This document shows positions 1,373 through 60,551 of a stretch of 64,000 nt of DNA, piece after piece. Numbering within the stretch: position 1 is the stretch's first letter; the number at the start of each line of letters is the position of its first letter. The DNA comes from Eledone cirrhosa (taxonomy: Eukaryota). The translations under genes and the position numbers were made by a program. The DNA lies in the NCBI GenBank assembly GCA_964016885.1, contig OZ024745.1:35154001-35218000 (forward strand), given 5' to 3'. The notes beneath the pieces were generated by a model that worked only from the letters and a program-made list of their open reading frames with translations, was not told the DNA's origin and made no database searches.

Positions 1373-2205
1373 AGTTGCATTTATCTTGCTTTATGTTCAT
1401 ACGAGTTATCACCAAGTCACAATCAGTGACCTCAACAGACAACAAGGTCCGCCATGTGCAAGAAAGAACATACATTCACACACATGCATCTTTAGGTGTT
1501 TAGACTTGTGATGTACTTATAATGACAGAATCTTCCTTAGTATATGGGCAGTTCCCATTCGTACTATCTTTTGTATTTCCCCTATACGGGGGTTTCCTGG
1601 GATTTGCGATAAGTAATCATTAGACCCCTTAGGTATCATTCCTAGAGCGCCTACAACCACTGGTATTGTTTTAGTTCTCAATTTCCACATTTTTCCAATT
1701 TCTATCTCCAGGTCCTTATACTTGCTCAATTTTTCAAATGTTTTTATAGATACATTCTTGTCTATTGGAACAGACATATCAATTAGCAGGCATATTCTCT
1801 TTTTAAAGTCCTTCAGTATTATATCAGGTCTATTTGCATCTATTTGTCGGTCTGTTTGGATGCTAAAGTCCCACAAGATTGAGATGTGATCTTTTTCAAG
1901 TACAGAAAGTGGTTGATGCTCCCACCAATTCTTTTGATGGGGCAGGTCAAAATGCTTACACATTATCCAATGTATGTATTGTGCAGCTCTGTCGTGCCTG
2001 TTTAGGTATTCGGTTGGAACTATAGGACTGCACATTGAAATTATATGATCAATGGTCTCTGGTTTAAATACACGGCATAATGGGCTGTACCCATTTTTTA
2101 TTATGTTGGCTGGGTAATTTTTTGTTGGCAGACACTGATCTTGTGCTGATATAATCAGTCCTTCAGTATCCGATTTCAGTCCAGAGGATGCCAACTACTG
2201 ATGGG

Positions 2206-2207
<2 letters not shown>
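1373..2207 (-). mobile_element. 5'-truncated R4/Dong-type non-LTR retrotransposon (same family as 6864-11650)
   Basis: ORF 1517-2194 with degenerate CCHC, RHD and PD-(D/E)xK RLE (NRPDI...KYKDL); near-identical to 6864-7700; flanked by (TTA)n. Confidence 0.92.
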
Positions 2208-2244
<37 letters not shown>

Positions 2245-2249
2245 GTTGT

Positions 2250-5200
2250 TATTCCTTGAATCTCAGTCATTGATGTTGGTTAACTGGAAAGTCCGTTGGA
2301 TTGAATATCAAGCCACTACCTGCAGCCTCAGATATTCAGGACGTATCGGAGGGTTCTTGCTGTTCCAAGCAAGCATGCCTTTTGAAGCGTTCCAAAAAGC
2401 GTGAAGGGGCCGATCTTCTTCAACCATCCCTGGAAACTTTTGGAGATAGTCCCCAGTGCGCCTATGACAATCGGGATCACTTTGACTTCATGGCAGTTCC
2501 AAATCCTTTTCACCTCCCACTTTAGGTCCTGGTATCGGTTAATTTTCTTCTCCCTCTCCTTCTCTTGCACTCTCGTGTCGAACGGGCAGGCCACATCCAC
2601 AATCAGGCACGATCTTTTTTTCTTTGTCCACAACCACCAGGTCAGGTCTATTGTGTTCCAGTTTTTTGTCCGTCTGTATCCTAAAATCCCACAGCACCTT
2701 CACCTGATTGTTCTCCATCACCGCCTTTGGCCTATGCTCATACCATTTCTCAGAATGTGGTAAATTGTTTACTTTGCACAGGTGCCAGTGGATCACCCTG
2801 CCCATCACATCGTGTCTCCAGCCCTTATAGTGGGTCTGGGCTAGGTGTTTACACTCGGACACAATGTGAGCCACAGTCTCCTCTCTCTCTCCACAGATCC
2901 TGCACAGTGGGCTAGCCTCCTCCTTGTAAATATGGTGCTTCAACCACTTCGTTTTGAGGGCCTGCTCCTGCGCAGCCATTAGCATTCCTTCTGTAGCCTT
3001 TTTGAGGTCTCCTCTTCTCAACCAGTTCCATGTCTGTGGATATCTAAATTCAGTTTTCTCAAAGAAGGTACTATGAAGGGATTTTCCCTTAAGGCTGCTC
3101 TTCCTCCTTGATGTTATTTCCTCCTTGGACATCCCCTGGCCTACTGTCCCCTCCTTCAGTACAGTTCTGAGCATTGGCTCCTTACTATAGGTCACGTATT
3201 TGTATAGGTTGTTTTTCTCCATCTGAACACAGTCCTCTATGCTGATAAGACCTCTTCCACCCTCAGATCTCCTTAGGTAGAGTCTATCGACATCACTCCT
3301 CTTGTGGAACATGTTGTAGATGGTCAATAGCTTCCTAGTCTTCCTATCCATTTCTTTTTGTTCAGCAACATTCCATCTCAGAATTCCCGCACTGTACCTA
3401 ATAATAGACACAGTTCGGGAATTTACTGCGCTTATGGCATTTCTGCTGTTCAGATGTGACTTCAATACGATCCTTACTCTCCGAATGTATTCAGTTCTTA
3501 ACAATTCCTTCATTTTTTTGTTCTTTATGCCATCAGCCTCCAGAACGCCCAAATACTTGTATCCTTCCTCAGAGTCAATTTCCTTTATCATCTCACCTGT
3601 TGGTATCTGGATCCCGTTACTTCTGCTCAACCTACCCCTCCTCATCACAATGACTCCACATTTACCAATACCAAACTGCATACATATATCACTGCTGAAA
3701 ATACGGACAGTGTCAACAAGCACATCCAACTCCTTCTCACTTTTCCCGAAGAGCTTAAGATCGTCCATGAAGAGGAGGTGATTGATGGTAAGCTCTCCCC
3801 TTCCCAACATGTATCCTGCCCTCACTTTCCGCAGCATAATGGTCAAGGGCATCAGGGCAAGGACAAACAACAGAGGGGACAGGCTATCTCCCTGGAAGAT
3901 ACCTCTCTTGATCTTCACGCTTCCCAAGGATACTCCAGTTGATGTCAACTCTGTCTCCCAGGACCCCATACTCCTGCCTAGCAACTGTCTGATGTTATCT
4001 GCCACCCTGAAGATCTCCAGGCTTTTGGTGATCCAAGAATGAGGCACCATGTCAAATGCCTTTCTGTAGTCTATCCATCCCATGGCAAGATCAGTGTGTC
4101 TCCTCCTGCAATTCCCCATTACCATCTTATCAATAAGTAACTGGTCCTTTGTACCACGTGACTTCTTTCGGCATCCTTTCTGTTCGTCCGGTAACAAGTT
4201 GTTTGTGTGGAGGTGATGGTAGATTTCCTCAGACACAATGCTCGTCAACAGTTTCCACATTACGGACAGACATGTGATAGGTCTATAGTTGGTAACATCA
4301 TTACCCTTGATTCGGTCTTTCATTATCAGAACTGTGGTACCTTTTGTCAACCACTCTGGCACCTCACCCGACACCAAGCAGTCATTGAACATGGCCGTCA
4401 GCTTCGGGTGGAGGGATGTTAAATGTTTAATCCAATACCCCTGCACACCATCTGGGCCTGGTGATTTCCAGTTGGTTAGTTTTTTGGCCTGCCCCTTAAG
4501 AGTTTCAACTGTGATACTCAAATCAGTTTGTTGTTGTGCCTGCTCACCGATCTCCCTCTGTACTGTCTCAATCCACCCTGCCTGGACATTATGTCTAACA
4601 TCTTGCTCCCATATTCCTCTCCAGAATGTTTTAGTTTGCTCCGCCCCAGGGATCAAGTCGTTGCCTCTTTCATTCCCCTCAAGCTGTCCAAACAGCATCT
4701 TCTGGTTGTTGTCGAACATGCGGTTCTGTTTATACTGACTGACTCTGTTCTCGTATCGCCTGATTTTTGCACTCTTTGCTACAATGCGTTGCTTCAGTTC
4801 CTCTATGATACTATTTAGCTTTTTCCTCCTAGTTTTGTATTTTATTTCCAGTCTATTTTTAGTGCCTATGTTTTTTAGTGTCCCATTCAGTAGTGACTCA
4901 AGCTTTCCTATGTCATTTCTCATTTCCCCGATTTGCCCACTCAGTCGCTTCTTCCACCACGGCTCTGCTCTTTCTTGTCTGTTGTTTCCTCTCGCTTTTA
5001 TACCAAGTAGTTTCCTCACCGTATTTGCTGTTGCTTTGAGGATATTGTTGCACTGGTGAAGGCTCCTCGCCTCAAGGTATGGGATGACTTTGTTTACCTT
5101 AGCTGTTGTTTCTTTTAACTTTTTCCTGTCTACAAATCTTAGGTTCATAGGTCTCCCACTATCATTGTTCAATTCATCTACCACTAAATTTAGGATGTCA

Positions 5201-6640
5201 ACCGAATCTTGTCCTAGCCCGTCAGCATTCATCTCCTCAGTGGCCGTATCTCTGTTCCAGGTATTATTTATCTCAGTATTCAGATCATTGTCTGCTTCGG
5301 GTGGTTCCTCCGTTCTCAGGACCTCTTCACCTTCATTTCCCACTGGCTCGCTTGTCTAGCATACTACACCCGCCATCTCCAAGCCATTCTCTCTGCTCAC
5401 TTCCTCCAGTTCCAGCTCGCTTATCCACCCATTAGTTCTTATTACCCGAGCCTGCCCGGCCAATTTTTGTTCATCTAATTTAAATAAACCAATCTCGTTC
5501 CAGATGTTATGCATCCGTCTCCTGTAGCCCCTCTCCTTGGGGTTACTTTTCAGGTAACATTGCATAACAGTTCTATTCAATTCTTTCGTCCAGTTGGTTC
5601 TGGCCCCTTTCCTTCTTCTCCTTCCTCCAACATCAGCAGTATTTGGTTGACAGTCAGGTTCCTGCTGCTGAGCCAGGGGGCACCTGTTGGGTGAGAGTCT
5701 GTCACATGACGTTCTAGTCTCCATTTCACCGTTATTCGAACTGTTTATGATCGATATTTAAACACTCTTATCGAGGATTGGCGAATGTATGGTTACATAG
5801 CCATCTGTGGATCCGCCATTCCACTTGGCCCTTGTGTGGCATTATCACCACGCTGTATACGAACACACATAAACAAACAAACACACAGGCAGAAAGGGCC
5901 CCAAAAATGAATAAGCATAAGTTTCATTGTAATGTAGTGTTCGAATGTCTGACTTAGTTTTTGTTTTTTAAGTTTTAGTTTTTCCCCCCTCTTCTCTGTC
6001 CGTCCGCCTGCTTCTCTCTTCATTCTTATTTTCTTTACGTTTTTTTTTTTTCTTTTTTTTTCTCTGTTTGTTTTTCTCGTTTTTTGCTGTTGTTGCTGTG
6101 CTGCTTTGGTTTTGTTGTTTGTTTTTTCTTTTTTCTTTTGAGTCTATCTATATATTTTGATGCCTTCCTCTTTTTTAGCAGTAGGGATTCTATAATGTGG
6201 TGGCAGCAGCCAGCTGGGAGAAGTGGATGACTGGCGGCGGTAGCGATACTGAGACAGTGGTGGTGGTGATGTCGATACCGAGGCAGTGGTGGCGGTGATG
6301 TGACCGTATTACTGTAGTGATGGTGCTGTAGCGGTGGTAGCAGTGAAGGAGTGAAGAGGTGGTGGCGGCGGTGATGGGATAATGGTGGTAATGATGGCCG
6401 TAGTGAGCGGTGGTGGTGAAAATGCCGTTATCTGGCTGTTGTGTTTAGTGTACACAGGTGATGGGGTGGGTGGTGTATCTAGTTTCTGGTGTTGGTGAGT
6501 TTGGCTGTTCTATATAGTGTAGACAGAGGAGAGGAGGGGGGGGGGGTTCTTCTTCCATTTATAGCCATTTTCTTTTTTGGATATACAGTGTACAATACAA
6601 AGTTGAATATTTGAATATTTGAGCCTTATAACAATATATT
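2250..6640 (-). mobile_element. R4/Dong-clade non-LTR retrotransposon family 1, near full length, mildly disrupted
   Basis: ORFs 5356-5724, 2539-5343 and 2328-2633 give N-terminal domain, RT (QGDSLSP, FMDD), CCHC, RHD and RLE; in-frame TAG at 5356-5358 and frameshift at T-run ~2615; (TAA)n 3' tail. Confidence 0.93.
2539..5343 (-). CDS. Reverse transcriptase / RLE polyprotein (Dong family 1)
   Basis: KSPGPDG, NYRPITCL, WIDYRKAFDMVPH, GIFQGDSLSPLLF, HLLFMDDLKLF, YKYLG, CRICGEREETVAHIVSEC, RHD. Confidence 0.92.
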   Translation of the reverse strand: MGNEGEEVLRTEEPPEADNDLNTEINNTWNRDTATEEMNADGLGQDSVDILNLVVDELNNDSGRPMNLRFVDRKKLKETTAKVNKVIPYLEARSLHQCNNILKATANTVRKLLGIKARGNNRQERAEPWWKKRLSGQIGEMRNDIGKLESLLNGTLKNIGTKNRLEIKYKTRRKKLNSIIEELKQRIVAKSAKIRRYENRVSQYKQNRMFDNNQKMLFGQLEGNERGNDLIPGAEQTKTFWRGIWEQDVRHNVQAGWIETVQREIGEQAQQQTDLSITVETLKGQAKKLTNWKSPGPDGVQGYWIKHLTSLHPKLTAMFNDCLVSGEVPEWLTKGTTVLIMKDRIKGNDVTNYRPITCLSVMWKLLTSIVSEEIYHHLHTNNLLPDEQKGCRKKSRGTKDQLLIDKMVMGNCRRRHTDLAMGWIDYRKAFDMVPHSWITKSLEIFRVADNIRQLLGRSMGSWETELTSTGVSLGSVKIKRGIFQGDSLSPLLFVLALMPLTIMLRKVRAGYMLGRGELTINHLLFMDDLKLFGKSEKELDVLVDTVRIFSSDICMQFGIGKCGVIVMRRGRLSRSNGIQIPTGEMIKEIDSEEGYKYLGVLEADGIKNKKMKELLRTEYIRRVRIVLKSHLNSRNAISAVNSRTVSIIRYSAGILRWNVAEQKEMDRKTRKLLTIYNMFHKRSDVDRLYLRRSEGGRGLISIEDCVQMEKNNLYKYVTYSKEPMLRTVLKEGTVGQGMSKEEITSRRKSSLKGKSLHSTFFEKTEFRYPQTWNWLRRGDLKKATEGMLMAAQEQALKTKWLKHHIYKEEASPLCRICGEREETVAHIVSECKHLAQTHYKGWRHDVMGRVIHWHLCKVNNLPHSEKWYEHRPKAVMENNQVKVLWDFRIQTDKKLEHNRPDLVVVDKEKKIVPDCGCGLPVRHESAREGEGEEN

Positions 6641-6788
6641 TTGGGTCCGAATTTTTTGGGGCTCAAGCCGGGTGCTTTACGTAGCATTTGTACTAAGAGT
6701 TGTTATTTCACAAATGATTTAAATATGTTAAAAATTCAAAACTTACGGGAGCGATTTCATGACCTCCATCACCTCGTGCGTCTTCTCC

Positions 6789-6863
<75 letters not shown>

Positions 6864-7006
6864 AGTTGCATTTATCTTGCTTCATGTTCATACGAGTTAT
6901 CACCAAGTCACAACCAGTGACCTCAAGAGACAACAAGGTCCGCCATGTTCAAGAAAGAACATACATACTCACACATGCATCTTTAGTGTTTAGACTTGTG
7001 ATGTAC

Positions 7007-8536
7007 TTATATTGACAGAATCTTCCTTAGTATATGGGCAGTTCCCATTAGTACTATCTTTTCTATTTCTCCTATACGCGGGTTTCCTGGGATTTGCGAT
7101 AAGTAATCATTAGACCCCTTAGGTATCATTCCTAGAGCGCCTACAACCACTGGTATTGTTTTAGTTCTCAATTTCCACATTTTTCCAATTTCTATCTCCA
7201 GGTCCTTATACTTGCTCAATTTTTCAAATGTTTTTATAGATACATTCTTGTCTATTGGAACGGACATATCAATTAGCAGGCATACCCTCTTTTTAAAGTC
7301 CTTCAATATTATATCAGGTCTATTTGCATCTATTTTTCGGTCTGTTTGGATGCTAAAGTCCCACAAGATTGAGATGTGATCTTTTTCAAGTATGGGAGGT
7401 GGTTGATGCTCCCACCAATTCTTTTGATGGGGCAGGTCAAAATGCTTACACATTATCCAATGTATGTATTGTGCAGCTCTGTCATGCCTGTTTAGGTATT
7501 CGGTTGGAGCTATAGGACTGAACATTGAAATTATATGGTCAATGGTCTCTGGTTGTTTTTTGCATACACGGCATAATGGGCTGCATCCATTTTTTATTAT
7601 GTTGGCTTGGTAATTTTTTGTTTGCAGACACTGATCTTGTGCTGATATAATCAGTCCTTCAGTCTCCGATTTCAGTCCAGAGGATGCCAACCACTGATGG
7701 GTTAAAGTTTTGTCAACATCAGGATTGTTAGCTCGCTCTGGGTATTTTCCATACAGAGGCTTTTCTTGCCATTTCTTAGCCAGTTTCTGTAGCAGTTCTT
7801 TCTTTGCAGTTACTTTTACCTGCTTTGCTTTTTCTGTGTTTTCCATTTCAGCAGTAAATGGGACTTCTGAAATTTGTAGTCCATTACTGTATCTTTGTGC
7901 ATCTTTTGTAATGGAATATGATCTTTTGATGCTTTCGTGTTTCAAAACGAGTTTGATCATCCAATCATGTGATTCCCTTAGATATGTAGATAATCCAATT
8001 GTTGCAATTTTCAACGCAATGTCTAACTGTATTAACCCACGTCCTCCTTCTTTCCTAGGGAGATATATTCTATCTATATCTGCCTTAGGGTGATGCATCC
8101 TGTGCATGGTTAAGAATTTTCTAATTTTTGTATCGAGCCTACGGATCTCTGTGCTTGACCAGTTGATGACATTGTAACTGTAGGTTACTACTGGTATGGC
8201 AAGCGTGTTTATGGCATCGATCCTATTCCTTGCATTCAATTCCGTTCTTAAGATTGCTCTTACTCTGCGGTAACATTCCTTCCTTATCCTTTCCCTCATT
8301 GTCGAGTGCTTGATTCCGTCTCCTTCACAAACACCTAGATATTTGTAAGTTTTTTCTTGATCAAGTTCTCTTATCACGTTCCCCCGATCAAGATTAATGT
8401 CTGAACTCTTCAGCAGCTTTCCTCTGGTGAACGTTGCTTTGGCGCATTCATCTAGTCCAAACTCCATTTTAATGTCATCACTGAACTGCTCCACAGTGGA
8501 TAATAGCCCTTGCAATTGTTCATCATTTTTTTGCAA
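7007..8536 (-). CDS. Dong family 2 polyprotein, RT thumb, zinc knuckle and RLE
   Basis: YKYLG, GGRGL, CRVCKKQPETIDHII, RHD, NRPDI, KYKDL. Confidence 0.92.
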   Translation of the reverse strand: MQKNDEQLQGLLSTVEQFSDDIKMEFGLDECAKATFTRGKLLKSSDINLDRGNVIRELDQEKTYKYLGVCEGDGIKHSTMRERIRKECYRRVRAILRTELNARNRIDAINTLAIPVVTYSYNVINWSSTEIRRLDTKIRKFLTMHRMHHPKADIDRIYLPRKEGGRGLIQLDIALKIATIGLSTYLRESHDWMIKLVLKHESIKRSYSITKDAQRYSNGLQISEVPFTAEMENTEKAKQVKVTAKKELLQKLAKKWQEKPLYGKYPERANNPDVDKTLTHQWLASSGLKSETEGLIISAQDQCLQTKNYQANIIKNGCSPLCRVCKKQPETIDHIISMFSPIAPTEYLNRHDRAAQYIHWIMCKHFDLPHQKNWWEHQPPPILEKDHISILWDFSIQTDRKIDANRPDIILKDFKKRVCLLIDMSVPIDKNVSIKTFEKLSKYKDLEIEIGKMWKLRTKTIPVVVGALGMIPKGSNDYLSQIPGNPRIGEIEKIVLMGTAHILRKILSI

Positions 8537-10658
8537 ATAGTTTCAGGTCATCCATGTAGAACAAGTGATTAATGGTTTTGTCATAGACTTTATATCCATG
8601 TTTTGTTTCATTGAGCATTTTACTTAATGGTATAAGTGCGATGCAGAATAAAAGCGGTGATAAAGAGTCACCCTGAAAAATTCCACAATTAATATTAACT
8701 TCTCCAGCTTCCAGTGATTTTGTTTCACTATTCAAAAGGAGTGTCGTTTTCCATGTCTTCATACTGAATGACAAAAACCTCCTGACAACGGGGGATATTT
8801 TGAAAATCTCTAAACATTTTTCAATCCAACTGTGTGGCAAACTATCGAATGCTTTTTTATAATCTATCCAAGCAATCGATAGATTTTTGTGTCTATTATG
8901 ACAATCTTCCAGTATCATTTTGTTAACCAGAAGCTGATCCTTACAGCCATATGAGCCTCGTTTACACCCTTTCTGCTCAATGGGAAATAGGTCATTTGTT
9001 ATCAGGTGGTCATATGTGTATTCAGTTAGGACTGATGTTAAAATTTTATACATTGGGGTCAAGCAAGTTATCGGTCTGTAATTTTTGGGATTGTTTGTCT
9101 CATCATTCTTCGGAAGCAGGAATGTAATGCCGTTAACTAGCCACGATGGTATCTTTTCTGGCTCCTTAACTATTTCATTGTAAAGTTGGGCTAACAGCTC
9201 ATGAGACTCTGTGAAGGCATTTATCCAAAAGTTTTGTATTTTGTCTTTTCCTGGGGATTTCCATTTGCTGGTTTTTCTTAGAGCCAAGCGCAACTGTTCA
9301 ACTGTTATATTTTCCCGTATTTGTTCCTCAAGGTGAGCTGTATCTTTCATTTGTCTGTCTATCCATGGGGCATGTATGTTATGAACTTTTTCTTCGGCCC
9401 AGATATTTTCCCAGAATTCTTGCACTTCCTCCTTGGGTGGTATTGATTTAGCAGTTATTGTTGACTTACAAATTTTTCTGTAGAAGTTTCTTTGGTTGTT
9501 TTTGAACATATTATTGTCCTTATAGAATCTAGATCGCTTTTCAAAGCGCCTTATACGAGCAGCTTTGGCCGACACTTTTTGCTTGATTATTTCTATCAGC
9601 ATGTCTATGTCACTTGTTGATTTTATACTGTACCTTTTTTTCAATTTTCTAAGTTTAGTTTGTTTAACATGTTCACCTACTTTATAGTTTGTTAAAATTT
9701 CTATGTCAGATCGGAGAAGGTTTATTTGGCGATTGATTTTCTCTTGCCAAGTAGATTTATTGTGGGAATTCCTTTGTTTTTTCATCTTCACTCCACATAA
9801 GTGAGTGGTGACTTTAGCCGATGCATAATAGAGATGATTTAAATCAGTAATGTTTAGTTTGTTTGTGATGATAATGTTTTTGAGAATTATGTTAGTCTTG
9901 TGTATTATCTTTTGGTTCTGTTTGGAGTTCTGGATCTTAGGGAGGGTGTCTCGTTGCCCCATGTCAGATTCTTTGATTTTCATCCATTCGATCATAATTT
10001 CATCCTTCAAGTTGGCAAGTTCATTCTCATTCATTTCTTTATCATTTACGATCTCATTATTTTCATTTGGAGTTTCATCTTGAGCATGCACTCCCTCCAC
10101 TTTTTCGATCCTTTCTTTAATTTGTTCTGTTGCCAGTGATTCCGCCCCAACCCTGGGATTCGAAGTGTTACAATTTACCTCGTTTTCACTGACACATGTT
10201 TCATTTTCCCCTCGCTGACTTTGTGCTAATAGCTTGATCTGATCAATTTCTATATCAGTTAGTAACTTTTTTCTTACAATATTTCTTCGTATATTGGCTA
10301 GTTTGTTACTGTCAATATAGCCTCTGTTTTCGGGATGTTTCTTTTTCCAGTTGATATATGTCTGTTCTGTATTTGATGTATTTAATGGGTAGTACATGGC
10401 AGTGTAGAAAGCCTCAAGGACTTCTTTATTATCTTCCCTTGACCATTTTTCTCTCTTTTTCCTTGGATTTCTTGGTGGTGAGCATGGAGGGCCAACAGTA
10501 GGAGTATTCCGGTTATGGGAGGTCTCCAGCTCCGAAGTGATGGGAAGGTTTGAACCATTAGCTGATTTTTCGACCCCAGTCTGGTTCCTCTCCGAGGGAC
10601 GCGGCCCTTTTTTACCCGGGTGACGGCCGATCCGGTATGAGATTTTATCATTAGACAT
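8523..10658 (-). CDS. Dong family 2 polyprotein, N-terminal part and RT core
   Basis: WKSPGKD, NYRPITCL, WIDYKKAFDSLPH, QGDSLSPLLF, HLFYMDDLKLF. Confidence 0.92.
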   Translation of the reverse strand: MSNDKISYRIGRHPGKKGPRPSERNQTGVEKSANGSNLPITSELETSHNRNTPTVGPPCSPPRNPRKKREKWSREDNKEVLEAFYTAMYYPLNTSNTEQTYINWKKKHPENRGYIDSNKLANIRRNIVRKKLLTDIEIDQIKLLAQSQRGENETCVSENEVNCNTSNPRVGAESLATEQIKERIEKVEGVHAQDETPNENNEIVNDKEMNENELANLKDEIMIEWMKIKESDMGQRDTLPKIQNSKQNQKIIHKTNIILKNIIITNKLNITDLNHLYYASAKVTTHLCGVKMKKQRNSHNKSTWQEKINRQINLLRSDIEILTNYKVGEHVKQTKLRKLKKRYSIKSTSDIDMLIEIIKQKVSAKAARIRRFEKRSRFYKDNNMFKNNQRNFYRKICKSTITAKSIPPKEEVQEFWENIWAEEKVHNIHAPWIDRQMKDTAHLEEQIRENITVEQLRLALRKTSKWKSPGKDKIQNFWINAFTESHELLAQLYNEIVKEPEKIPSWLVNGITFLLPKNDETNNPKNYRPITCLTPMYKILTSVLTEYTYDHLITNDLFPIEQKGCKRGSYGCKDQLLVNKMILEDCHNRHKNLSIAWIDYKKAFDSLPHSWIEKCLEIFKISPVVRRFLSFSMKTWKTTLLLNSETKSLEAGEVNINCGIFQGDSLSPLLFCIALIPLSKMLNETKHGYKVYDKTINHLFYMDDLKLFAKK

Positions 10659-15936: not shown

Positions 15937-16142
15937 AAGTAAGGTTTTTGATATATCCCACACGGGTAAAAATAGTAGTTTAAAATACAATTGGAGTTTT
16001 AAAAAATGTGTCTATGTTAGAAACCGGCTCTAAAACCAGAACACACGCATGCATATATACATACATGCATATATACATACATACATACATACATACATAC
16101 ATACATACATACATACATACATACATACATACATACATACAT

Positions 16143-17050
16143 ACGGAAGATGCTATTCAATGTTCAAACAAGATAAAAAAATTGACCAATTTACAGAAAA
16201 AGTTGGGCATGGATACTTGAGACGTAAAACACAGACCATAGAGGGGATAAACCACTCAAAAAGCCTGGCATGGAGTTCCGACAAGTTTATGACATCACAC
16301 CTTAAGGGATATCTCTATGCAATACAGGAACAAGAACTCCCTACCAAATATCTGCTGCACAAAAGAGGAGGGCCAGCAGCTGACAATAAATGTAGGCTAT
16401 GTAAAACAAAGATCGAGGATGTAAGCCACATTGTTGCCAGCTGCGAAAGAATGTCATCTCGCTACTACCTCCCCATGAGACACGATGGGATAGCTAGAAC
16501 CATCTGGAACGCACTTCGGAAAACAAAATTAACAACAAACGAGGAAGAATATATTGAGACAGATGGCATTAAGGAATACTGGTGGAACCTGAAAATAAAA
16601 ACTGCCACCAAATTAAAGCACAACCGGCCTGATATTGTAGTTTGGGACCACACATTGAAAACGTGTTCTGTTGTGGAGATCAGCTGCCCACTTGATGTAA
16701 ACGTTGTCAGAAAAATACAGGAGAAGGAGGACATCTGCGGACCATTGATGAGGAGTTTACAAATCCAGTATCCAAGATACACCCCTTAGCTTCATACCCA
16801 TCATTATTGGAGCTACGGGTTATATACCAACCCGCTTGGACCAAAGTATGACTGAACTTGGATTTGCGGACAAAAAGCGCAGCTCCCTAATTCATAGTCT
16901 ACAAATTGCTGCGATAGCTGGCACCTTCAAAATTTGCAAAACATTCTTGCGATTCAAGGGATGACAATTTCTTTTCTTTTACAACCTTGCCACCAGGAAG
17001 GTGGCCGGTCAAAAAAAATATACTCGAAATTAAGAGAAAGAGATAACATA
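16143..17050 (+). mobile_element. Truncated RLE-type LINE 3' end inserted in (CATA)n
   Basis: CRLCKTKIEDVSHIVASC, RHD, HNRPDIVVWD, VVEISCP; both ends in (CATA)n; near-identical copy at 42468-42960. Confidence 0.88.
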
Positions 17051-17389
17051 CATATGTAAAACATTCCAAAAATTTTGCATCTAATAACTGCATATACACA
17101 TGTACAGATACAAAGCATATACACATGCACACATACAACTCAAAACATACACATCCACACATACAATAACATCCATATCTACACATGCATACATACATAT
17201 CTATCTAGGTGATGTTGTGTAAATTCCAATGAGAGAGTCTTGTGTCTATGTTAGAAACCGACTCTCGCTATTGGGAAAAATTTGTGAAATTATAAAACCA
17301 GAAGAACATACATACATACATACATACATACATGCATGCATACATACATACATACTACGTTCGCCCGCGTACATACATATGCATGCTTA

Positions 17390-35967: not shown

Positions 35968-38112
35968 GCAGGAGGAGAGTGACTTGGTGTGGAACAATAA
36001 GGTAGATGAGGCAGTTAAGGCCAAGAGAAGGCATGGAAAGAATGGAAGAACGGGGGGAGCAGGGTACATTACATAGAGACCAAGAGGGAAGCTAGGCGAC
36101 AAGTATACTTAGCTAGGAGGGAAGCAGAGGATAGAAAAATTCAAGCATGTTTTGCAACGTGAGAACCAGAAACAGGAGGTGTTCAAGATTGCGAGGCAGT
36201 GTGTCAGAGAGAATTGTGATGTCATTGGAGAGAAGTGTATCCGGAATGATAAAGGTGAGCTTGCCCTCACAAGTGCTGAGAAGAAAGATGCATGGAAGAG
36301 TCATTATGATAGATTACTAAATGAGGAGAATGCATTGGAAGAAGAGACCCTACCCCAAGTAGACCCTATAGAGGGGCCAGCAGTACAAGTCAGCAGCAGC
36401 GTAGTAAGTAAGGCAATCAAAGATATGAAGATGGGGAAGGCAACCGGTCCATCGGGTATAGCTGCCGAGATGCTGAAGGCATCTGGGTCTGTAGGTCACA
36501 CTATAACCACACGTATTGTTAACCAGGTAATACTAGAAGGTGTCATACCAAAAGATTGGTGCAGTAGCCTCATTGTCAACTGCTACAAAGGTAAAGGTGA
36601 TGCACTAGATAGAGGAAACTATATAGTAATAAAGCTGATGGACCAGGTCATGAAAGTAACAGAAAGAGTTATAGCACAGTTGATTAGGGACCGGGTGAAA
36701 CTAGATGAGATGCAATTTGGGTTTGTACCAGGAAGAGGCACCACTGATGCCCTCTTCCTTGTGAGGCAGTTGCAGGAAAAGTACCTAGCTAAAAGTAAGC
36801 CACTCTACCTGGCATTCGTCGATCTCGAGAAAGCCTTTGACAGAGTTCCACGTGCTGTAATCTGGTGGGCTCTTCGAAAACTAGGAGTAGATGAATGGCT
36901 TGTGAAAGCTGTACAAGCCATGTATAGGGGAGCAGTCAGCAAAGTTAGGATTAGCAATGAGTATAGCGAGGAATTTAGCGTACAGGTTGGGGTCCACCAG
37001 GGCTCTGTTCTTAGCCTCTCCTGTTCATCATAGTTCTACAGGCAATAACGGAGGAGTTTAAGACCGGATGCCCATGGGAACTCCTGTATGCTGATGACGT
37101 CGCACTTATAGCTGAATCTATGGTAGAACTAGAGAAGAAATTCCAAACTTGGAAGCAGGAACTAGAAAGAAAGGGTCTCAAAGTCAACATGAAAAAGATT
37201 AAGGTCCTTGTAAGTAGACGAGAAAACAGAACCCAGATCCCCTCAGGGAAATGGCCTTGCTCAGTATGTAGGAAAGGTGTAGGTAGGAACTCCATTCTCT
37301 GCCCCAAATGCAAACAATGGGTACACAAGAGATGTAGCGGGATCTCAGGAAGCTTAATTAAGAATGTAGGCTTCACATGCAGCAGCTGTACTGGGACAGC
37401 AAGTAGCAAACAGCCACAGGAAACAAGTACCACCAATCTCTGGGAGGGCTCTGTAGAGACAGTAGACAGCTTCTGCTACCTAGGTGACCGAATTAGCAGC
37501 GCAGGTGGATGTTCAGAAAGTACAATAACTAGGGTAAGAATGGGATGGAAGAAGTTCAGGGAACTGCTACCAATGCTAGCTGCAAAAGGCTTCTCCCTCA
37601 AAATGAAAGACTGACTGTATGATGCGTGTATCCGAACAGCAATGTTACATGGTAGTGAGACCTGGGCGCTGAAGGTGGAAGACTCATGTAGATTAGAGAG
37701 AAACGAAGCCTGCATGCTCCGATGGATGTGTAATAGTAATATACGCGAACGACAAAGCATAAATGAATTGAGAGAGAGACTGAGCATAAGAGGAATCAAA
37801 TGCTGTGTGCAGGAGAGGCGGATGCGTTGGTATGGATATGTGATGCGTATGAAGGATGATAGCTGCATAAAAAGGTGCAGAGCACTAGAAGTCGATGGAA
37901 ACCGCCGAGTGGAGAGACCCAAGATGACCTGGGATGAGATGATAAAAGCCGACCTTACCCAATTACATCTCTCAAAGGCGATGACACACGACCGTGACCT
38001 CTGGCGTCACGCAGTAATACAGAGTACCCGACCTCCCATGGGTACAAGCTGAAGCATATAGACAATATGCCCCTACACCCTCCCACTGCAAGGTCGTCAT
38101 GGAGGTGCCACA
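35964..38112 (+). mobile_element. 5'-truncated RTE-clade LINE
   Basis: KATGPSG, QFGFVPGRGTTDALF, FVDLEKAFDRVP, HQGSVLS, LLYADD, Cys-rich insert, FCYLG; frameshifts and a stop; in (TA)n. Confidence 0.9.
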
Positions 38113-40328: not shown

Positions 40329-40484
40329 TTACGCATACACGAACACACACACACACACACGCATGCACATATACACGCACACAAATATATATATATATAT
40401 GTAATAGCATCTTATTATTATAGAATTGTGACTAACACGGTTTTATGCACCAGAAATTACATTCAAATGATGACCGCGTGTCTC

Positions 40485-40586
40485 TTCTATTACTGTCTAC
40501 GGCTTTCCACACTGGACGTAGTACACTACACTTCTATTACTGTCTACGGCTTTCCACACTGGACGTAGTACACTACACTTCTATTT
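40485..40586. repeat. Tandem duplication of ~46 bp
   Basis: cttctattactgtctacggctttccacactggacgtagtacactaca occurs twice in tandem. Confidence 0.85.
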
Positions 40587-41031
40587 ATATTAATATCCTG
40601 CCTCAACTAAATCATTTGATTTCTCAGACAATAATAAAACATTATACCGTATGCATAGAAACACACACACACACACACATACACGCACACTTATATGTAT
40701 ATATACATACACATACACACATATGTATATATATAAATATATATATATATACACATATATTTATATGTACATATTGTCTGTGTGTTTACATACAGAATAG
40801 CTGGACACTCACAGTAAAGTGACCAGTGAAAAACTCGGTACATCTACATATGTATACGTGTGTGTATTCATATGCATACTAGTATTTCAGTATGCATATG
40901 TGGATGTACATTTTTAACTTAATTGTTTAAGCGTCAGTCATACAAAAGTGAGTTACAAACGAAACGAAATTTAATTTCGTTTCGTTATTTGTTTTTATCG
41001 TCTCCGTTGAACCGGTACGTACTCACGCTCT

Positions 41032-41039
41032 ATGCAAAT
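41032..41039 (+). promoter_or_regulatory. Octamer motif ATGCAAAT
   Basis: Exact octamer ~85 nt upstream of the hammerhead; same arrangement in the related element (60338-60345, minus). Confidence 0.45.
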
Positions 41040-41124
41040 TAGTCTGCCCACTACTAATTTTCATAGAAAAAGCATATAACGATATGTGCTTTTACGATTC
41101 TCTAGAGAGGCCGGAAGATAGGTA

Positions 41125-41169
41125 AATATTGCTGATGAGATGTAACAACATCGAAACTAGTTCAATATT
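41125..41169 (+). ncRNA. Type I hammerhead ribozyme, canonical
   Basis: aatattg CTGATGA gatgt aaca acatc GAAA ctag TT caatatt; 7-bp stem I, 5-bp stem II, palindromic stem III. Confidence 0.85.
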
Positions 41170-41561
41170 CCTTGTCTGGCTTTCTGGAGAATAGAGGAAA
41201 GGTGTTTCCTCAAAAACCAGTATGACTCTAAAAACCGGTTTGTCTGTGTGTTTACATACAGAATAGCTGGACACTCACAGTAAAGTGACCAGTGAAAAAC
41301 TCGGTACATCTACATATGTATACGTGTGTGTATTCATATGCATACTAGTATTTCAGTATACATATGTGGATGTACATTTTTAACTTAATTGTTTCAGTGT
41401 CAGTCATACAAAAGTGAGTTACAAACGAAACGAAATTTAATTTCGTTTCGTTATTTGTTTTTATATATATATATATATGAATATAAAAATGTTAACTATA
41501 TGAATACACACACACACACATCACACACACACAAACATCTATCTCTCTCTCTCTATATATA

Positions 41562-42341: not shown

Positions 42342-42467
42342 CTGAAGTGACAAAAAATAAAATAAACAAAATAACGTACATAAAAAATGACAATAAACAA
42401 TTGCTATCACAATTTACTTTACATACATATATACATATATACATACATACACACATACATGCATATA

Positions 42468-42960
42468 TATTGAGACAGATGGCACTAAGGAATACTGGTG
42501 GAACCTGAAAATAAAAACTGCCACCAAATTAAAGCACAACCGGCCTGATATTGTTGTTTGGGACCACACATTGAAAACGTGTTCTGTTGTGGAGATCGGC
42601 TGCCCACTTGATGTAAACGTTGTCAGAAAAATACAGGAGAAGGAGGACATCTACGGACCATTGATGAGGAGTTTACAAATCCAGTATCCAAGATACACTT
42701 TTAGCTTCTTACCCATCATTATTGGAGCTACGGGTTATATACCAACCCGCTTGGACCAATATATAACTGAACTTGGATTTGCGGACAAAGAGCGCAGCTC
42801 CCTAATTCATAGTCTACAAACGGCTGCGATAGCTGGCACCTTCAAAATTTGCAAAACATTCTTGCGATTCAAGGGATGACAATTTCTTTTCTTTTACAAC
42901 CGTGCCACCAGGAAGATGGCCGGTCAAAAATATACTCGAAATTAAGAGAAAGAGATAACA
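42468..42960 (+). mobile_element. Shorter copy of the (CATA)n-associated RLE LINE
   Basis: Matches 16552-17050; flanked by (CATA)n; lies ~125 nt upstream of the exon C acceptor. Confidence 0.88.
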
Positions 42961-42976
42961 TACATACATACATACA

Positions 42977-48864: not shown

Positions 48865-48946
<82 letters not shown>

Positions 48947-49034
48947 GGAAAAATTTGAACAGGGACAAAACAGAGAGGCAGTACAACGAATGTTTATTAA
49001 TTTCACGCTCTGGACAGTGGGGTGTTGGTGGGGG

Positions 49035-49068
49035 ATGACGTTTCGGGCATAAGCCCTTCCTCAGGTGA
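49035..49068 (-). ncRNA. Minimal PLE-type hammerhead in the 3' pLTR
   Basis: cac CTGAGGA agggc ttat gccc GAAA cg TC at. Confidence 0.72.
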
Positions 49069-50572
49069 GAAGTGTGTGGGAACAGAGTTCAAAGGGTGTG
49101 TAGGGGAGTGGTGGAGAGACATATAGCGAAAGGAAACGATGCGAATGAAAAAATAAAAAATAAAGATAAAAATAAAAATAAAGCATGATCAAAATACAAG
49201 GAATGAGATAAATTTAAAAATAAAGGCATGATCAAAATAAACTGAAATTAAAAGGGGGGTAAACAGGTGGTGGAAGGGTGTGGGGTGTGTAGGGGTGGTG
49301 GCAGGTGGAGTGGGGAGAGGGAGACGGGGTGTCCGAGCGGGGAGGGCTGAAGGTGGTGTGTGTGTGTAGGTGTGCGTGTGTGTGTGTGTGTATGTGAAAG
49401 TAAGGGTTGGGGGAAGAACGGGGTTGCATGTTCAGGAAGAGGTGTGTGTGTGGGGGGGGGGGGTGGGGCGGAGTGTCTGTGCGTGTGTGGATAGAGGGGT
49501 GGGGAAAGAGGAATCTGGAGGCTGAGGGTGTAAATATGTGGTGGAAAGCACGTGTGTGTGGGGTTTAAGTGTGTTGTGGGTGTAGGTGGCGTGTGGAGAA
49601 AAAAATTTTTTGGGGTGTGTGTTTGTGTGAGTTATATAGGTGATTACGTAAGAGGATGGTTGAAAAGTTGGTAAATTCCGAAGATGTTTAGTGGATTGGT
49701 TGTTGGTCAATTTCTGCGTGTGGGTATTCCATGAAGCGATGGTCGGAAGAGAAGAGATGTGGGGTGCGCGCGCAACAGGAAGTGGTCAGCAGTGGGAGTG
49801 CTGTGGTCTGTTTGTGCTGGGAGGTGGTCAGAGGGCATAGCAGCAGTCGGTGGAATGGTAAAGGGGCGAGGATGGGTAGGTGTGAAAGTTGGAGTGAGGA
49901 GGGTGTGTGTGTGTGTATTAGTAGGGGTGTTAGTGGGATGAGTGAGTGTGGAGCGAGGGTGTGGGTGGAGCGGGGAGAGAAGGGTGTGTGTGGTTCTATG
50001 GAGGGAGTGTGGTGTACTGGTGTGTGTGTAGTTTGATGAAGAGGTGTTAGTGGGTGTTAGTATACGGGAGGTGGGGAGGAGTTGAATGCAGGTGTGAGTG
50101 GGGTTAGTGGTGGTAGGGTGTGTAGAGTTGGTGGTGTACGAGGGTGTGTGGGTACGTGTGCGTGGAGTTGGGGGGTGTTAGTGATGTTAGTTGCGTGTGG
50201 GGTGGGTGGTGTAAGTGGGTGCGTGTGTTCGTGTGCTTGGGGTTAGGGGGTGTTAGGGAGGTTAGTTGCGGGGTGGTGGGATATGGTGTAGGGGTGAGTG
50301 GTGTGGGGGTGAGGGTTAGTGGTGGTAGTAGGGTGTGTGTTTAGTGTGAGCGCGTGTATATATATGCCGGTGGGTGTGTGCGTGTGATAAGGAGGGGGAG
50401 GAGGAGAAGAGGGGAGGGAAGGGATGTTAGTATGTTTGTTGGGGAAGGGTGGTCAGATGAGGGGTGGAGTGGAGGTGTTAGTATTGTTAGTTGTGGGGTG
50501 GGCGGTGAAAAGGAGGGGTGTGTTAGTGGTGTTAGTGGGGGATAAGTGTGGGGGGAGGGGGGCGGTCGAAGG

Positions 50573-53372
50573 CTAAAGGAATAAGGGTGGGGAGTTCAGG
50601 CCGGGGGGAGTGTGGGTCTGTAAGATGAAGATAGTTCGTTGTTCGACCGTAAGGCGATTGGCGGGTGTTCCGTGGCACTGGAGTAGGCCACAGACTGTGA
50701 GATGGCGTGCGGAATGTCCAGGGCCACCAAAGTGGCGGGCGATGGGGGAACTACCTCCGAGACGAATATCCCGGAGGTGCTCCGTCACTCGGTCCGCCAG
50801 GCGACGTCCCGTCTGTCCGACAGAAGTCCGTAGACTAGGTTGGAGGATGTGCAGCGGAAGGCATGCCGGACCGAGAGAGAGTGGCCTTTGGGACCCTGGA
50901 AGGTGGTGGTGTTGGTGATGTGGGGACAGGTGTTGCAGCGGGGCCTAGAACAGGGAAAGGAACCGGGGGGGCGGGAACAGAGCGTGGGTTGGGGGGTAGG
51001 GAGCTGTGGACGAGGAGGGTGTGGAGATTGCGTGCGCGTTTGAAGGAGGGGAGTGGTAGGGTTGGGAAGATGTGGGAGATAGAGGGGTCGGACTGGAGGC
51101 GTCGGAAGAGGCGGCGGATGGTGCGGTGGAGGGGTAAGGTGGAGGGGTGGTAGGTGATGGGGAAGGGGAGACGGTGGGTGGGTGTGCGGTGGCGTGGGGT
51201 GAGGGTGGTGGAGCGGGCGACAGCACGGGCGCGGGTGAGAGCGGTGTGGACGAGAGGGGGGGGGGTAACCTCTGCGGATGAAATGGCTGACTAGGGAAAG
51301 GGCCTGGGACTCAAAGTCAGCATCACGGCTACAGAGGCGGCGGATCCTGAGAAGTTGGGAGTAGGGAATGGAGTGTTTAGTGTGGGTGGGGTGGGAAGAG
51401 GTGAAGTCGAGGTAAGAGTGGGAGTCGGTGGGTTTGAAGAAGGCGGAGGTGACGAGGGAGTGGTGGGAGGAGTCGAAGGCGACGGAGATGTCTAAGAAGT
51501 GGACGTGGGTGGTGGAGATAGAGGTGGTGAAGTGGAGGGAGGTGTAGAAGGAGCAGAAGAAGGAGGGAAAGGAGTCGAGCTGTTCTCGGGTAAGGGTCGT
51601 GGCTCCGATACAGTCGTCAATGTAACAACCGTACAGTTCGGGCGTGGGGCCGGTGTAGTGGGCAAAGATTTGGGCCTCAACATGGCCAACAAAAAGGTTG
51701 GCATAGTTCGGGCCCATTCTTGTACCCATGGCTACCCCCGTAACCTGTTGGTAAAACTCACCCGAGAAGGAGAAACAATTCAGGGTGAGGACCAGTTCGG
51801 CGAGGCGAAGGAGGGTGGGGTGGAGGGAATGGGGGAGGGGTGAAGGTCGAGGTAGTGTTTGAGGGCGCGAAGGCCGTCGGCGTGGGGGATGACTGTATAG
51901 AGGGACTTGATGTCTAGGGTGAAGAGGAAGGGCTGTGGGCCGGGTGGGTAGGTGAAGGAGTCGAAAAGGAGCAGGGCGTGGTTGGTGTCGTGGATGTGGG
52001 AGGGGAGGGTGGTGACAAGGAGGGCGAGGAGGGAGTCGAGAAAGGCGGAGATGAGTTCGGTGGGGCAGTTGCAAGCGGAGACGATGGGGCGGCCGGGGTT
52101 GTCGGGTTTGTGGAGTTTGGGGAAGAAGTAGATGGTGGGGGTGCGGGGGGTGCGGACGATGAGGTGGGAAGCGGTGGGGGGGGGGGGGGGGGAGGAGGGA
52201 GGAGGCGATAAGGTCTTTGATGGTGGAGGAGACTTGTTGTTGGTAGAGGGGGGTGGGATCGGAGGGTAGAGGGCGGTAAAAGAGGGGGTTACAGAGCTTC
52301 CTGAGGGCTTCGGCCGTGTAGAGGTCCGCGCGCCACACCACTACGGCGCCTCCCTTGTCCGCCGGTTTGATGACGATGTCATCTCGGCTACGGAGGGAGC
52401 GGAGAGCGAGGAGTTCGCCCCGTGAGATATTGTACCGTTTGGAACGGTGGCGGAAGTCGAAACGATTTACTGCGCTACGGCTGGCATCGACGAAGGCGTC
52501 CAGGGTGCTAAATTGCCCTGGGGCCGGCGTCCAAGAAGATGGTCGTCGGCCCAGGGCGAGAAACGGGTCTGGGGCGTCCGGAGCCGGTGGCGTTCGGCCG
52601 AAATGTGCCTGTAGCTTAGTGCGTCGCACGAATCGCTCGACTTCCGTTCGAGTGCGGAACTCGTCGCTGTACGGAGTGTGGGGTATGAAGCGAAGGCCTC
52701 TACTAAGGAGTGAGCGCTCAGGTGCGGAGAGGGGGAGGACAGGGGGTATGGTGACAACAAGGGGTGGGGTTTGAATGTTTGGGGGGGGTGAGGGTGTGGT
52801 GAGGGGTGAGGTGGAGGGTGGAGATTGGGTAGGGGTGTGGGTCGAGGGTGAGGTGGAGAGTGGTGGGCGTATGGGGATGGGCGGGTGGTGGTGGATGGGG
52901 AGGGGGTTGGGAGGAGTGAGTGTAGCTTGCGGGCTTTGGTGGAGCTGAGGAACGAGAAGAGGTTGTGGTTGAGGTTTTGGATGAAGGAGAGGATGGCTTG
53001 GGCGAGGAGGGGGTGGCAGGTGGAGTTAAGGCGGAGGAGGGTGGGGGTCAGTTGGTGGTCAAGTTGGCGGAGGGTGGAACGGGAGGCGCGGATGGAGTTG
53101 CGCATCAGGAGGCGTGAGGATCGGGTGAGGATACGTTGCGTGGAGGGGGAAGCGGCGGGGGAAGGGTGGAAGTGTAGACGGAAGCCGAAGGGGATAAGGT
53201 GGAGGCGGAGGCAGTGGCTGAGGAAATGGATGTGGCTGGAGTGCCGGGTTTTGGCGAAGAGAAGGTAGGAGAGTTAAAGGGAAGAGGGGAGATAGCAGGG
53301 TGGGAGGAGGGGGGTGAGGAAAAGTTTGAGGCGATTATGTAGTTGGTGGAGAAAGGATCTCAGGTTGGGCAT
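50573..53372 (-). CDS. PLE reverse transcriptase + GIY-YIG endonuclease (frameshifted)
   Basis: Stitched from ORFs 53274-53519, 52467-53105, 50785-52629 and 50573-50788; several breaks fall at long G/C homopolymers. Confidence 0.85.
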
Positions 53373-53925
53373 GATGGGCGTTGGGTGAAAGCAGGGGGAG
53401 GGATGAGAAGGCAGGGGTGTGAAGCGGGGTGGAGTGAACGAAGGGGTGAGTGCGAAGGATAGGCAGAGACGGGGAAGGGAAAATGAAACAGAAAAACGTA
53501 GGGAGGGGGGAGTAAACACAGGAAAATTAAAGACAAAAAATCATAAAGGTAAAAACACAGGCGATCGTGAACAAAAAATCATAAAGGTAAAAACACAGGC
53601 AACCGTGAACAAAAAATCATAGAAATACAATTGTAAGAACACAGGCAAAGAATCATATACGGAAAAAAAGGGGTACAGTAACAAAATCAAACAGAGGTAA
53701 TGCGTGGAAGGAAAGACCAAGTGTGGGAAGGTGTGTAAAGTTCGGGGAAAGGTCACGGCGGATTAGATCGGGGTTGAGCCGGTAGTTAAGTTATGTTCCA
53801 AGGAATGGAAGCCGTGTGAGCGTGTATTATATATAATGGAAAAATTTGAACAGGGACAAAACAGAGAGGCAGTACAACGAATGTTTATTAATTTCACGCT
53901 CTGGAGAGTGGGGTGTTGGTGGGGG

Positions 53926-53959
53926 ACGACGTTTCGGGCATAAGCCCTTCCTCAGGTGA
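53926..53959 (-). ncRNA. Minimal PLE-type hammerhead in the 5' pLTR
   Basis: cac CTGAGGA agggc ttat gccc GAAA cg TC gt. Confidence 0.75.
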
Positions 53960-54298
53960 GAAGTGTGTGGGAACAGAGTTCAAAGGGTGTGTAGGGGAGT
54001 GGTGGAGAGACATATAGCGAAAGGAAACGGTGCGAATGAAAAAATAAAAAATAAAGATAAAAATAAAAATAAAGCATGATCAAAATACAAGGAATGAGAT
54101 AAATTTAAAAATAAAGGCATGTCTAGGGCGGGTAAAATTCCCTAGATCCATGGACGAGTTCTCTCCAGCGGTCTCTGTCCCTCATCAATGTATCAAGCGA
54201 TGACATTACTTGAAATCGAGTTGCAACCATCCTTATGTGTGTATGTATGTATGTATGTATGTATGTATGTATGTATGTATGTATGTATGTATATATGT

Positions 54299-59399: not shown

Positions 59400-60532
<1,133 letters not shown>

Positions 60533-60551
60533 ATATATATATACATACATT

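Follow-up and report, generated by a model that had tools for sequence, protein, structure and literature searches.

The window analysed here, a 64,000-nt stretch of the genome of Eledone cirrhosa, contains an insertion that we consider likely to be a 5'-truncated copy of a 466-nt non-LTR retrozyme, placed in a (TA)n tract probably by the machinery of a Penelope-like element (PLE) from a circular monomer and probably provided with a U6-type promoter. The element possesses every sequence-level characteristic of non-LTR retrozymes, and its value lies in its mechanistic footprints. Retrozyme identity, proposed in the initial annotation of the window, is supported by the occurrence of both dispersed and tandem copies, the non-coding nature of the unit, the presence of a hammerhead in each unit and a compensatory change in stem II. 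Comparisons with the literature refer to the accessible sections of the papers cited.

Structure of the window copy

The features of the insertion and of two related elements in the window are listed in Table 1. The window copy starts at q78, a random 5' truncation, and finishes at q302, the fixed 'long' 3' end; no inverted arm longer than 25 nt accompanies it. The direct repeats of 225 nt with a period of 466 that had been noted earlier were recovered with three mismatches and do not extend past either side. Likewise, the absence of an ORF was confirmed, the longest stop-free frames in the circularised monomer being 57 aa (plus strand) and 60 aa (minus strand). The octamer 5' of the hammerhead, ATGCAAAT, was located at 41032, and the internal hairpins are present (40958-40986 region, z -3.9), with an AT-rich hairpin inside the tail at 41424-41452. 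The 5' flank (40692-40773) is TA/CA-rich like the 3' junction. The element is organised by fixed internal end sites and not by LTRs.

Table 1 Features of the window copy and of related elements; q numbering starts at q1 = 41163, the first base 3' of the predicted ribozyme cut
Feature	Position	Strand	Remarks
Whole insertion, 1.48 monomers (691 nt)	40774..41464	+	q78-466 then q1-302
225-bp repeat, first copy (q78-302)	40774..40998	+	
225-bp repeat, second copy (q78-302)	41240..41464	+	3 differences
Promoter-like motif TATGCAAATTAG	41031..41042	+	contains octamer; 5' arm of predicted RNA hairpin (to ~41065)
TATA-like box CATATAAC	41073..41080	+	TATA 43 nt after octamer start
Extended stem I rod around hammerhead	41097..41192	+	helices 3-4, 98% of cells paired
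Type I hammerhead, minimal palindromic stem III	41125..41169	+	predicted cut after 41162
Short 3' end site (q228-233)	41390..41395	+	end of second arm in two-armed insertions
'Tail' of ~70 nt between both end sites	41396..41464	+	T5 run at long end
(AT)n target remnant at 3' junction	41465..41478	undefined	
Sister-family copy	59941..60550	-	62% identity over 442 columns; 5' boundary approximate
Presumed Penelope-like element	48943..54120	-	hammerheads in both pseudo-LTRs (53955, 49064); end ...TTTTTCCATT in (AT)n

Hammerhead and RNA fold

The hammerhead (AATATTG CTGATGA GATGT-AACA-ACATC GAA AC-TA-GT T CAATATT) has a complete core. Stem II measures 5 bp and stem I 7 bp, the latter being prolonged as a long rod, whereas stem III is palindromic and has 2 bp. 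The cut is predicted after GUU at 41162, as in the initial annotation; the description as perfect needs one qualification, since stem III is minimal, with 2 bp around the palindromic ACTAGT. Hammerheads of this minimal stem III type cleaved poorly as monomers in axolotl, as stated in the accessible part of PMC7229834. The Rfam check proposed with the initial annotation returned an HH9 match at 41114-41185 that scored 36.5 bits (E 1.9e-7) and so did not reach the threshold for gathering, 52; at the gathering score, Rfam gave no matches across the window. Matches to miRNAs in the below-threshold search were rejected as TA-repeat artefacts, far under the cut-off.

An alignment of 34 copies shows a core with no or almost no variation, the cut base is U or C, and stem II carries a compensatory swap, with A-U in 17 and U-A in 16 of the copies; one base pair of the stem I rod has changes on both sides. 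The circular monomer was predicted to fold with -158.9 kcal/mol and the hammerhead formed, none of 60 shuffles being equally stable (z -12, a value perhaps inflated by AT-rich palindromes). Both 3' end sites adjoin hairpins in this predicted fold. Applied to the aligned copies, the circular fold keeps 99% of cells paired, and six pairs are changed on both sides, a number that was reached by 146 of 500 shuffles.

Copy number and dispersal of the family

Exact matches to the 30-nt hammerhead core number 2,603 across the genome (3.0 Gb), against none for the reversed control. A looser pattern from octamer to hammerhead, which also catches a sister family, matched 23,535 times (reversed control 0). 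The possibility, raised with the initial annotation, that the locus is a unique local duplication did not hold, since 7,808 exact genomic matches were counted for a family-specific 32-mer of the promoter region and at least 2,097 dispersed insertions lie in (TA)n: exact junctions to such tracts number 2,097 for the long end and 438 for the short end, with none in the reversed controls. The family occurs as single copies, short tandems and long arrays, and head-to-head layouts are very frequent. The genome-wide search for tandem or circularly permuted copies yielded tandem and dispersed ones, whereas permutation proved not to be random: 3' ends fall at two fixed internal sites and only the 5' ends vary.

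Contigs from sequencing runs of three other organisms also carry the unit. Altogether, contigs from four runs of four organisms cover it, with the same stem II swap and with loose ends in (AT)n; these ends lie at 41390/41394, i.e., at the short end site, although contigs of this kind cannot reveal transcript ends.

A two-site footprint in (TA)n tracts

The 3' ends of the insertions lie not at the cut, but ~300 nt (q300-302, 'long' site) and ~230 nt (q228-233, 'short' site) past it. A first sample of ends was obtained from 20 regions (19 insertions) chosen for the hammerhead only. Here, all outer 3' ends were at q300-302 or q228-233 and adjoined (TA)n, with the exception of one 39-nt piece in L037, and 5' ends were scattered; wherever both inverted ends could be resolved (13 insertions), one was of the long and the other of the short kind.

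A second, end-selected sample was taken from the first-listed junctions on two contigs and consisted of 80 long-end loci (81 fetched, one duplicate removed) and 79 short-end loci, four insertions being common to both sets. At the long-end loci, the inverted arm finished at the short site in 43 cases, at the long site in none and elsewhere in six, with the remainder made up of short-end stubs of a few bases (10), loci without inversion (10) and loci that ran off the fetched stretch (11). The short-end loci mirrored this, with the inverted arm ending at the long site in 46, at the short site in none and at other positions in three, while 20 had no inverted arm longer than 25 nt and 10 were run-offs. 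Long/short pairing was hence seen in 43/49 and 46/49 resolved inverted arms, and same-site pairs were absent.

A partial tandem, an inverted 5'-truncated copy, a tail at one end only and a bias towards (TA)n form the layout reported for Penelope-like elements in the part of Craig et al. (10.1101/2021.04.23.441226) available to us. The Poseidon PLE PAc cuts and extends both strands, and two internal starts of reverse transcription bound its tail (Frangieh et al., PMC11167929, accessible part). The footprint of two sites, inversion and (TA)n matches both this layout and the PAc biochemistry, from which we infer PLE machinery that primed from both sides of a break. The suggestion that the element uses such machinery is in this way strengthened, and we regard it as very probable that it is a non-LTR retrozyme mobilised by a PLE.

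Template of reverse transcription

Of 69 long arms, 55 cross the predicted cut, 28 include at least one extra monomer and two stop within 10 nt of the cut. No significant pile-up of 5' breakpoints was detected at the cut or at the predicted transcription start (132 and 105 breakpoints), and 346 of the 349 cut-site junctions found were unchanged in length, in a search whose pattern favours intact junctions. As the arms run through the cut without pile-up or scar, the template would have been continuous across it, as either a circle or a multimer left uncut.

Units within an insertion are far more alike than units of different insertions, with a divergence of 0.76% inside and 6.6% between loci (69 loci), and in the same loci subfamily alleles were fixed within a locus 824 times and polymorphic 75 times. 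Rare variants that are fixed in every overlapping unit (164 loci) are biased on the hammerhead strand, with 18 A>G and 6 T>C among 43 distinct ones (p 0.008). The 5' neighbour of the fixed A>G variants is G in none and T in 10, which is the preference of ADAR, and the variants cluster in some loci; 27 of 52 fixed-variant events span both arms. Repetition of A>G-biased variants reaches 14 copies in L050 and seven in L236, and concerns five sites in L196. Variants present in some units only, and hence post-insertion, are symmetric (A>G:T>C 27:33 of 303). When strictly locus-private alleles only are counted, the bias is 7:2 (p 0.095). An early excess of C>T (8:2) was gone in a larger sample (4:3).

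The A>G bias of the unit-wide variants favours one, probably edited, circular template, as an edit of one RNA molecule would be present in every unit only if one monomer was read repeatedly; a bias in reverse transcriptase errors, or selection or tolerance for G-U pairs, could contribute to it. Several loci are polymorphic for multiple subfamily alleles (e.g., L166), so that not every insertion had one template. The initial annotation had attributed the more-than-unit length of the window copy to rolling-circle reverse transcription. This origin is favoured at the level of the family by uniform units, seamless junctions and the A>G bias, but array length itself is no proof of it. On balance, a circular monomer is probably the main template.

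Clusters of subfamily alleles differ between copies of one insertion at L166, L190, L208 and L213, some of them maybe as alignment artefacts at indels, and this suggests two RNA templates or template switching at these loci.

An uncut linear multimer, transcribed by read-through of a tandem array and reverse-transcribed by the same PLE enzyme while the hammerhead stays largely silent, would also explain arms that cross the cut without a scar. It would suit the minimal stem III, the 75 subfamily alleles polymorphic within loci and the preference of PAc for unprocessed RNA in vitro (PMC11167929, accessible part). However, long arrays are heterogeneous and new insertions are nevertheless internally uniform, and the rare A>G-biased variants recur in all units as well as in both arms (L050, L236, L196); both call for a one-monomer bottleneck. 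The hammerhead, moreover, retains a compensatory change, and we consider the multimer an unlikely template.

A cut linear monomer, along which the reverse transcriptase jumps from end to end repeatedly, would account for the uniformity of units without ligation, and breakpoints are slightly, though not significantly, more frequent close to the cut (16/132 within 20 nt, p 0.12; 9/105 within 12 nt, p 0.11). The near absence of long arms that stop at the cut and of junctions with altered length, the latter in a search whose pattern favours intact junctions, makes this reading quite doubtful.

Sister family and Penelope-like partner

The sister-family copy of the window shares the promoter motif (60338), has its hammerhead core start at 60257 and reaches its long end in (TA)n. 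Units of this family measure ~430-540 nt and include an internal (TA)n-like tract of variable length; both long and short ends were found in 6 of 23 loci. From the pattern matches, the sister family is probably more numerous than the focal one. A third hammerhead-like motif (CTGATGA...GAAACAGACTGTT) is located at 59682-59727 on the plus strand, ~130 nt from the (TA)n at the end of the sister copy, and did not form a hammerhead when folded alone.

The element at 48943-54120, which from its motifs we take to be a PLE (its clade label rests on the same motifs), is near full-length, frameshifted and GC-rich; its protein gave no match in Pfam or PDB. Its family is abundant and young, as all 150 scored matches have 93-100% identity. 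Of 20 loci of this family, 17 have the end of the element at a single site within (TA)n, and the terminal sequence is TTTTCCATT in 14 of the 17; a second end site was not seen in the 20 loci. The sister copy of the window ends like those 14 (TTTTCCATT), while three other sister copies end in TTTTTCC(A/G)TT. The end of the focal family, TTATTTGTTTTT, resembles the PLE ends less than the sister-family end does, and comparison of the focal unit with the pseudo-LTR of this one PLE family gave no significant similarity (best E 0.2). The PLE of the window is a candidate partner, its end motif fitting the sister family better than the focal one. More distant PLE families also occur in the genome.

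The hammerhead and the PLE-type ends would also be expected if the unit were no element of its own, but the detached pseudo-LTR of an autonomous PLE, left behind by 5' truncation, and Xenopus retrozymes are related to pLTRs according to the accessible part of 10.64898/2026.07.22.740005. The focal element, however, lacks an ORF with reverse transcriptase (RT) and GIY-YIG domains, i.e., it is not an autonomous PLE; its arms lead into further monomers and not into an ORF, and it has its own subfamilies and promoter. With queries from one PLE family, no focal copy was fused to a PLE ORF in 190 loci, and RT/EN matches occurred in nine of them, all ~0.9 kb or more away. Origin as a detached pseudo-LTR is accordingly highly improbable.

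Growth of arrays after insertion

In long arrays (30 units of one array; L050), variants recur every 3, 4 or 7 units. This indicates that duplication at the DNA level enlarged some arrays after insertion, as observed for two long arrays. We therefore rejected long arrays as evidence for a rolling circle, since at least part of their growth took place later in DNA. The same periodicities in arrays of at least 30 units would agree with a satellite DNA spread by DNA-level recombination, in which the ribozyme is incidental, but thousands of dispersed insertions, fixed 3' and variable 5' ends, strict long/short pairing, (TA)n targeting and strand-asymmetric variants leave that origin a negligible probability; it is largely refuted for dispersal and stands for later array growth only.

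A probable U6-type promoter

The octamer is part of a motif, TATGC(A/T)AAT(T/G)AG, that is shared with the host U6, U6atac and RNase MRP genes. It is found at -77 to -79 together with a TATA at -30 in all three distinct U6 gene types, and at -78 in the RNase MRP gene, which was checked afterwards as a prediction. In U6atac, it was recognised with one mismatch in the top locus, one of six fetched, the other five of which resemble retrocopies. Two U6 array units that bear an insertion have the motif shifted further upstream. Seven U1 and five U2 loci lack the motif at that position, as do 14 U6 copies in which the distal element is missing; host U1/U2 genes have TCAGT near -57 in its place, and the exact octamer occurs at -399 in one of 12 loci. 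The parallel drawn earlier with newt satellite 2 needs correction, as the octamer is not of the U1/U2 distal kind found there but corresponds to the -78 element of host type-3 (U6/U6atac/MRP) promoters and is followed by a TATA-like box. Only 7 of 20,000 dinucleotide shuffles of the monomer contained the motif pattern, and the motif is also kept in the sister family. A TTACCTCCCT-like distal element, at about -260 to -290 in most host U1, U2 and U6 genes, was not obvious by eye in the monomer.

The putative promoter stretch (q335-384) varies by 1.0-2.5%, compared with 6.1% in the body of the unit, and apart from the sequences used for selection it is where the unit varies least; the lowest between-locus variation (1.0%) is that of the TATA-like box region. 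A predicted RNA hairpin overlaps the promoter region and could explain part of this conservation. Transcription is predicted to start at ~41105-41109.

The spacing from octamer to TATA is 42-43 nt in the retrozyme versus 46-48 nt in host U6 and MRP genes, i.e., 4-5 nt short. Each focal unit has internal T runs (T5, T5, T4, T4), and runs of T6-T7 are present in six of eight internal units of the sister family. Canonical Pol III is expected to stop at internal T runs. The copied arms nevertheless span the T5 runs (T6-T7 in the sister family), counter to a type-3 Pol III unit without internal terminator. The short spacing and the copied T runs argue against plain use of Pol III. Since human type-3 promoters can recruit Pol II (PMC6023835, accessible part), either polymerase could serve here, and the choice between Pol II and leaky Pol III is about even. 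That the U6-type element acts as a working promoter is, from its motif and conservation, reasonably probable.

Two further candidates for promoter evidence were discarded: the stretch of 271 nt past the predicted start without T4, considered as avoidance of T runs, is matched by 20% of shuffles (p ~0.2), and a TCAGT in the tail, considered as a U1/U2-like element, is only a 5-mer and is absent from sister-family variants.

The comparison also yielded the promoter code of the host snRNA genes. It consists of TATG(C/G)(A/T)AAT(T/G)AG at -78 with TATA at -30 in U6, U6atac and MRP (L069-L071, L097, L228), and of TCAGT near -57 with a TATA-like stretch near -33 in U1 and U2 (L051-L054, L063-L068). 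As a by-product, the U6-type motif defined in this way could serve to express guide RNAs in this lineage. Directly after (TA)n tracts lie several retrocopies of U6 and U6atac (L081, L082, L087, L229, L230), as if captured by a microsatellite-targeting retroelement.

Proposed cycle and relation to known retroelements

We propose that the U6-type element and TATA of each unit start transcription ~55 nt upstream of the hammerhead and that, where copies stand in tandem, read-through into the next unit lets the RNA take along a promoter that would otherwise be external. Hammerheads would cut after GUU/GUC, as motif and covariation suggest, probably as dimers, and free the 466-nt monomer, which a host ligase such as RtcB may close into a highly paired circle, by analogy with other retrozymes. 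Some A's of the circle are likely edited to I. Both strands of the (TA)n tract would then prime cDNA, with a start at q300-302 for one strand and at q228-233 for the other; the genomic footprint shows these starts, and the enzyme is presumably of the PLE type. Each cDNA would extend backwards across the cut to a varying extent, and the truncated arms would then be joined head to head. The window copy would have kept the long-end arm only (691 nt), and later duplication at the DNA level expands some insertions.

A more far-reaching version, which we put forward tentatively and with rather less than even confidence, is that of a self-sufficient RNA-circle retroelement: the gene-external U6 promoter of the host would be internalised through the tandem and circular form, its spacing retuned for read-through of T runs, the circle A-to-I edited, and a Penelope RT would roll round this one circle, starting at either end of a double-strand break in (TA)n. 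If true, the genome would preserve, thousands of times over, a direct record of how single edited RNA molecules were reverse-transcribed by rolling circle.

The focal element resembles metazoan non-LTR retrozymes (coral, mussel, axolotl; Cervera and de la Pena 2020, PMC7229834; vertebrate survey 10.64898/2026.07.22.740005; both in their accessible parts) in having short non-coding tandem units with a type I hammerhead each, low GC, a highly paired predicted circle, thousands of copies and PLEs alongside. Its monomer of 466 nt compares with 170-400 nt in the former and 51-972 bp in the latter paper. Circles of metazoan retrozymes were demonstrated in these studies, whereas the focal circle is a prediction from genomic sequence; in the survey, eight of nine Xenopus retrozyme dimers did not cleave. 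As far as their accessible parts go, both papers base their proposal of mobilisation by PLEs on co-occurrence or on relatedness to pLTRs, without demonstrating how retrozymes return to the genome. Neither mentions a pair of fixed ends, insertions with two inverted arms, a preference for (TA)n, editing marks or a promoter of U6 type.

Partial tandems, the inverted 5'-truncated copy, the one-end tail, two internal RT start sites, (TA)n or AT-rich targets and a hammerhead upstream of the end sites are shared with EN+ PLEs (Neptune/Naiad targeting, Poseidon PAc; 10.1101/2021.04.23.441226 and PMC11167929, accessible parts). In contrast to these, the focal element has no ORF, its tail measures ~70 nt instead of 30-40, and the whole unit repeats; PAc in vitro used uncut linear RNA, with the hammerhead dispensable. 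With newt satellite 2 and the schistosome satellite (as cited in the accessible parts of PMC2220036 and PMC7229834), the element has in common a hammerhead repeat with its own small-RNA-gene promoter, a weak stem III and a palindromic loop. Newt satellite 2 has a snRNA-type promoter used by Pol II and the schistosome satellite an internal Pol III promoter; unlike in the newt, the motif here matches the upstream element of host type-3 U6/U6atac/MRP genes with a TATA, not the host U1/U2 promoters. Our search of open-licence papers found no description of a cephalopod retrozyme, of the focal family, of a two-armed retrozyme footprint or of a U6-type retrozyme promoter.

The insertion ends point to an enzyme class, with two internal starts and priming on both target strands as in PAc, and to the exact start sites, so that the published PAc-type assay can be applied to circular, linear and multimeric templates. 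Variants repeated in all units of one insertion make it possible to study, from sequence only, how a rolling circle is copied and how RNA edits become fixed in DNA, and the element illustrates a mobile RNA that carries a promoter normally outside the transcript.

Other repeats of the window

A perfect 47-bp tandem duplication (2.2 copies) occupies 40484-40585, ~190 nt upstream of the element. Non-LTR elements are located at 1517-10658 (minus strand), 16034-17054 and 42465-42966 (plus strand), and 36113-38052 (plus strand). Among them are three RT elements whose C-termini are of the restriction-like endonuclease type, a pair of 3' fragments from one family that are 96% identical, and one RT-bearing LINE-like fragment.
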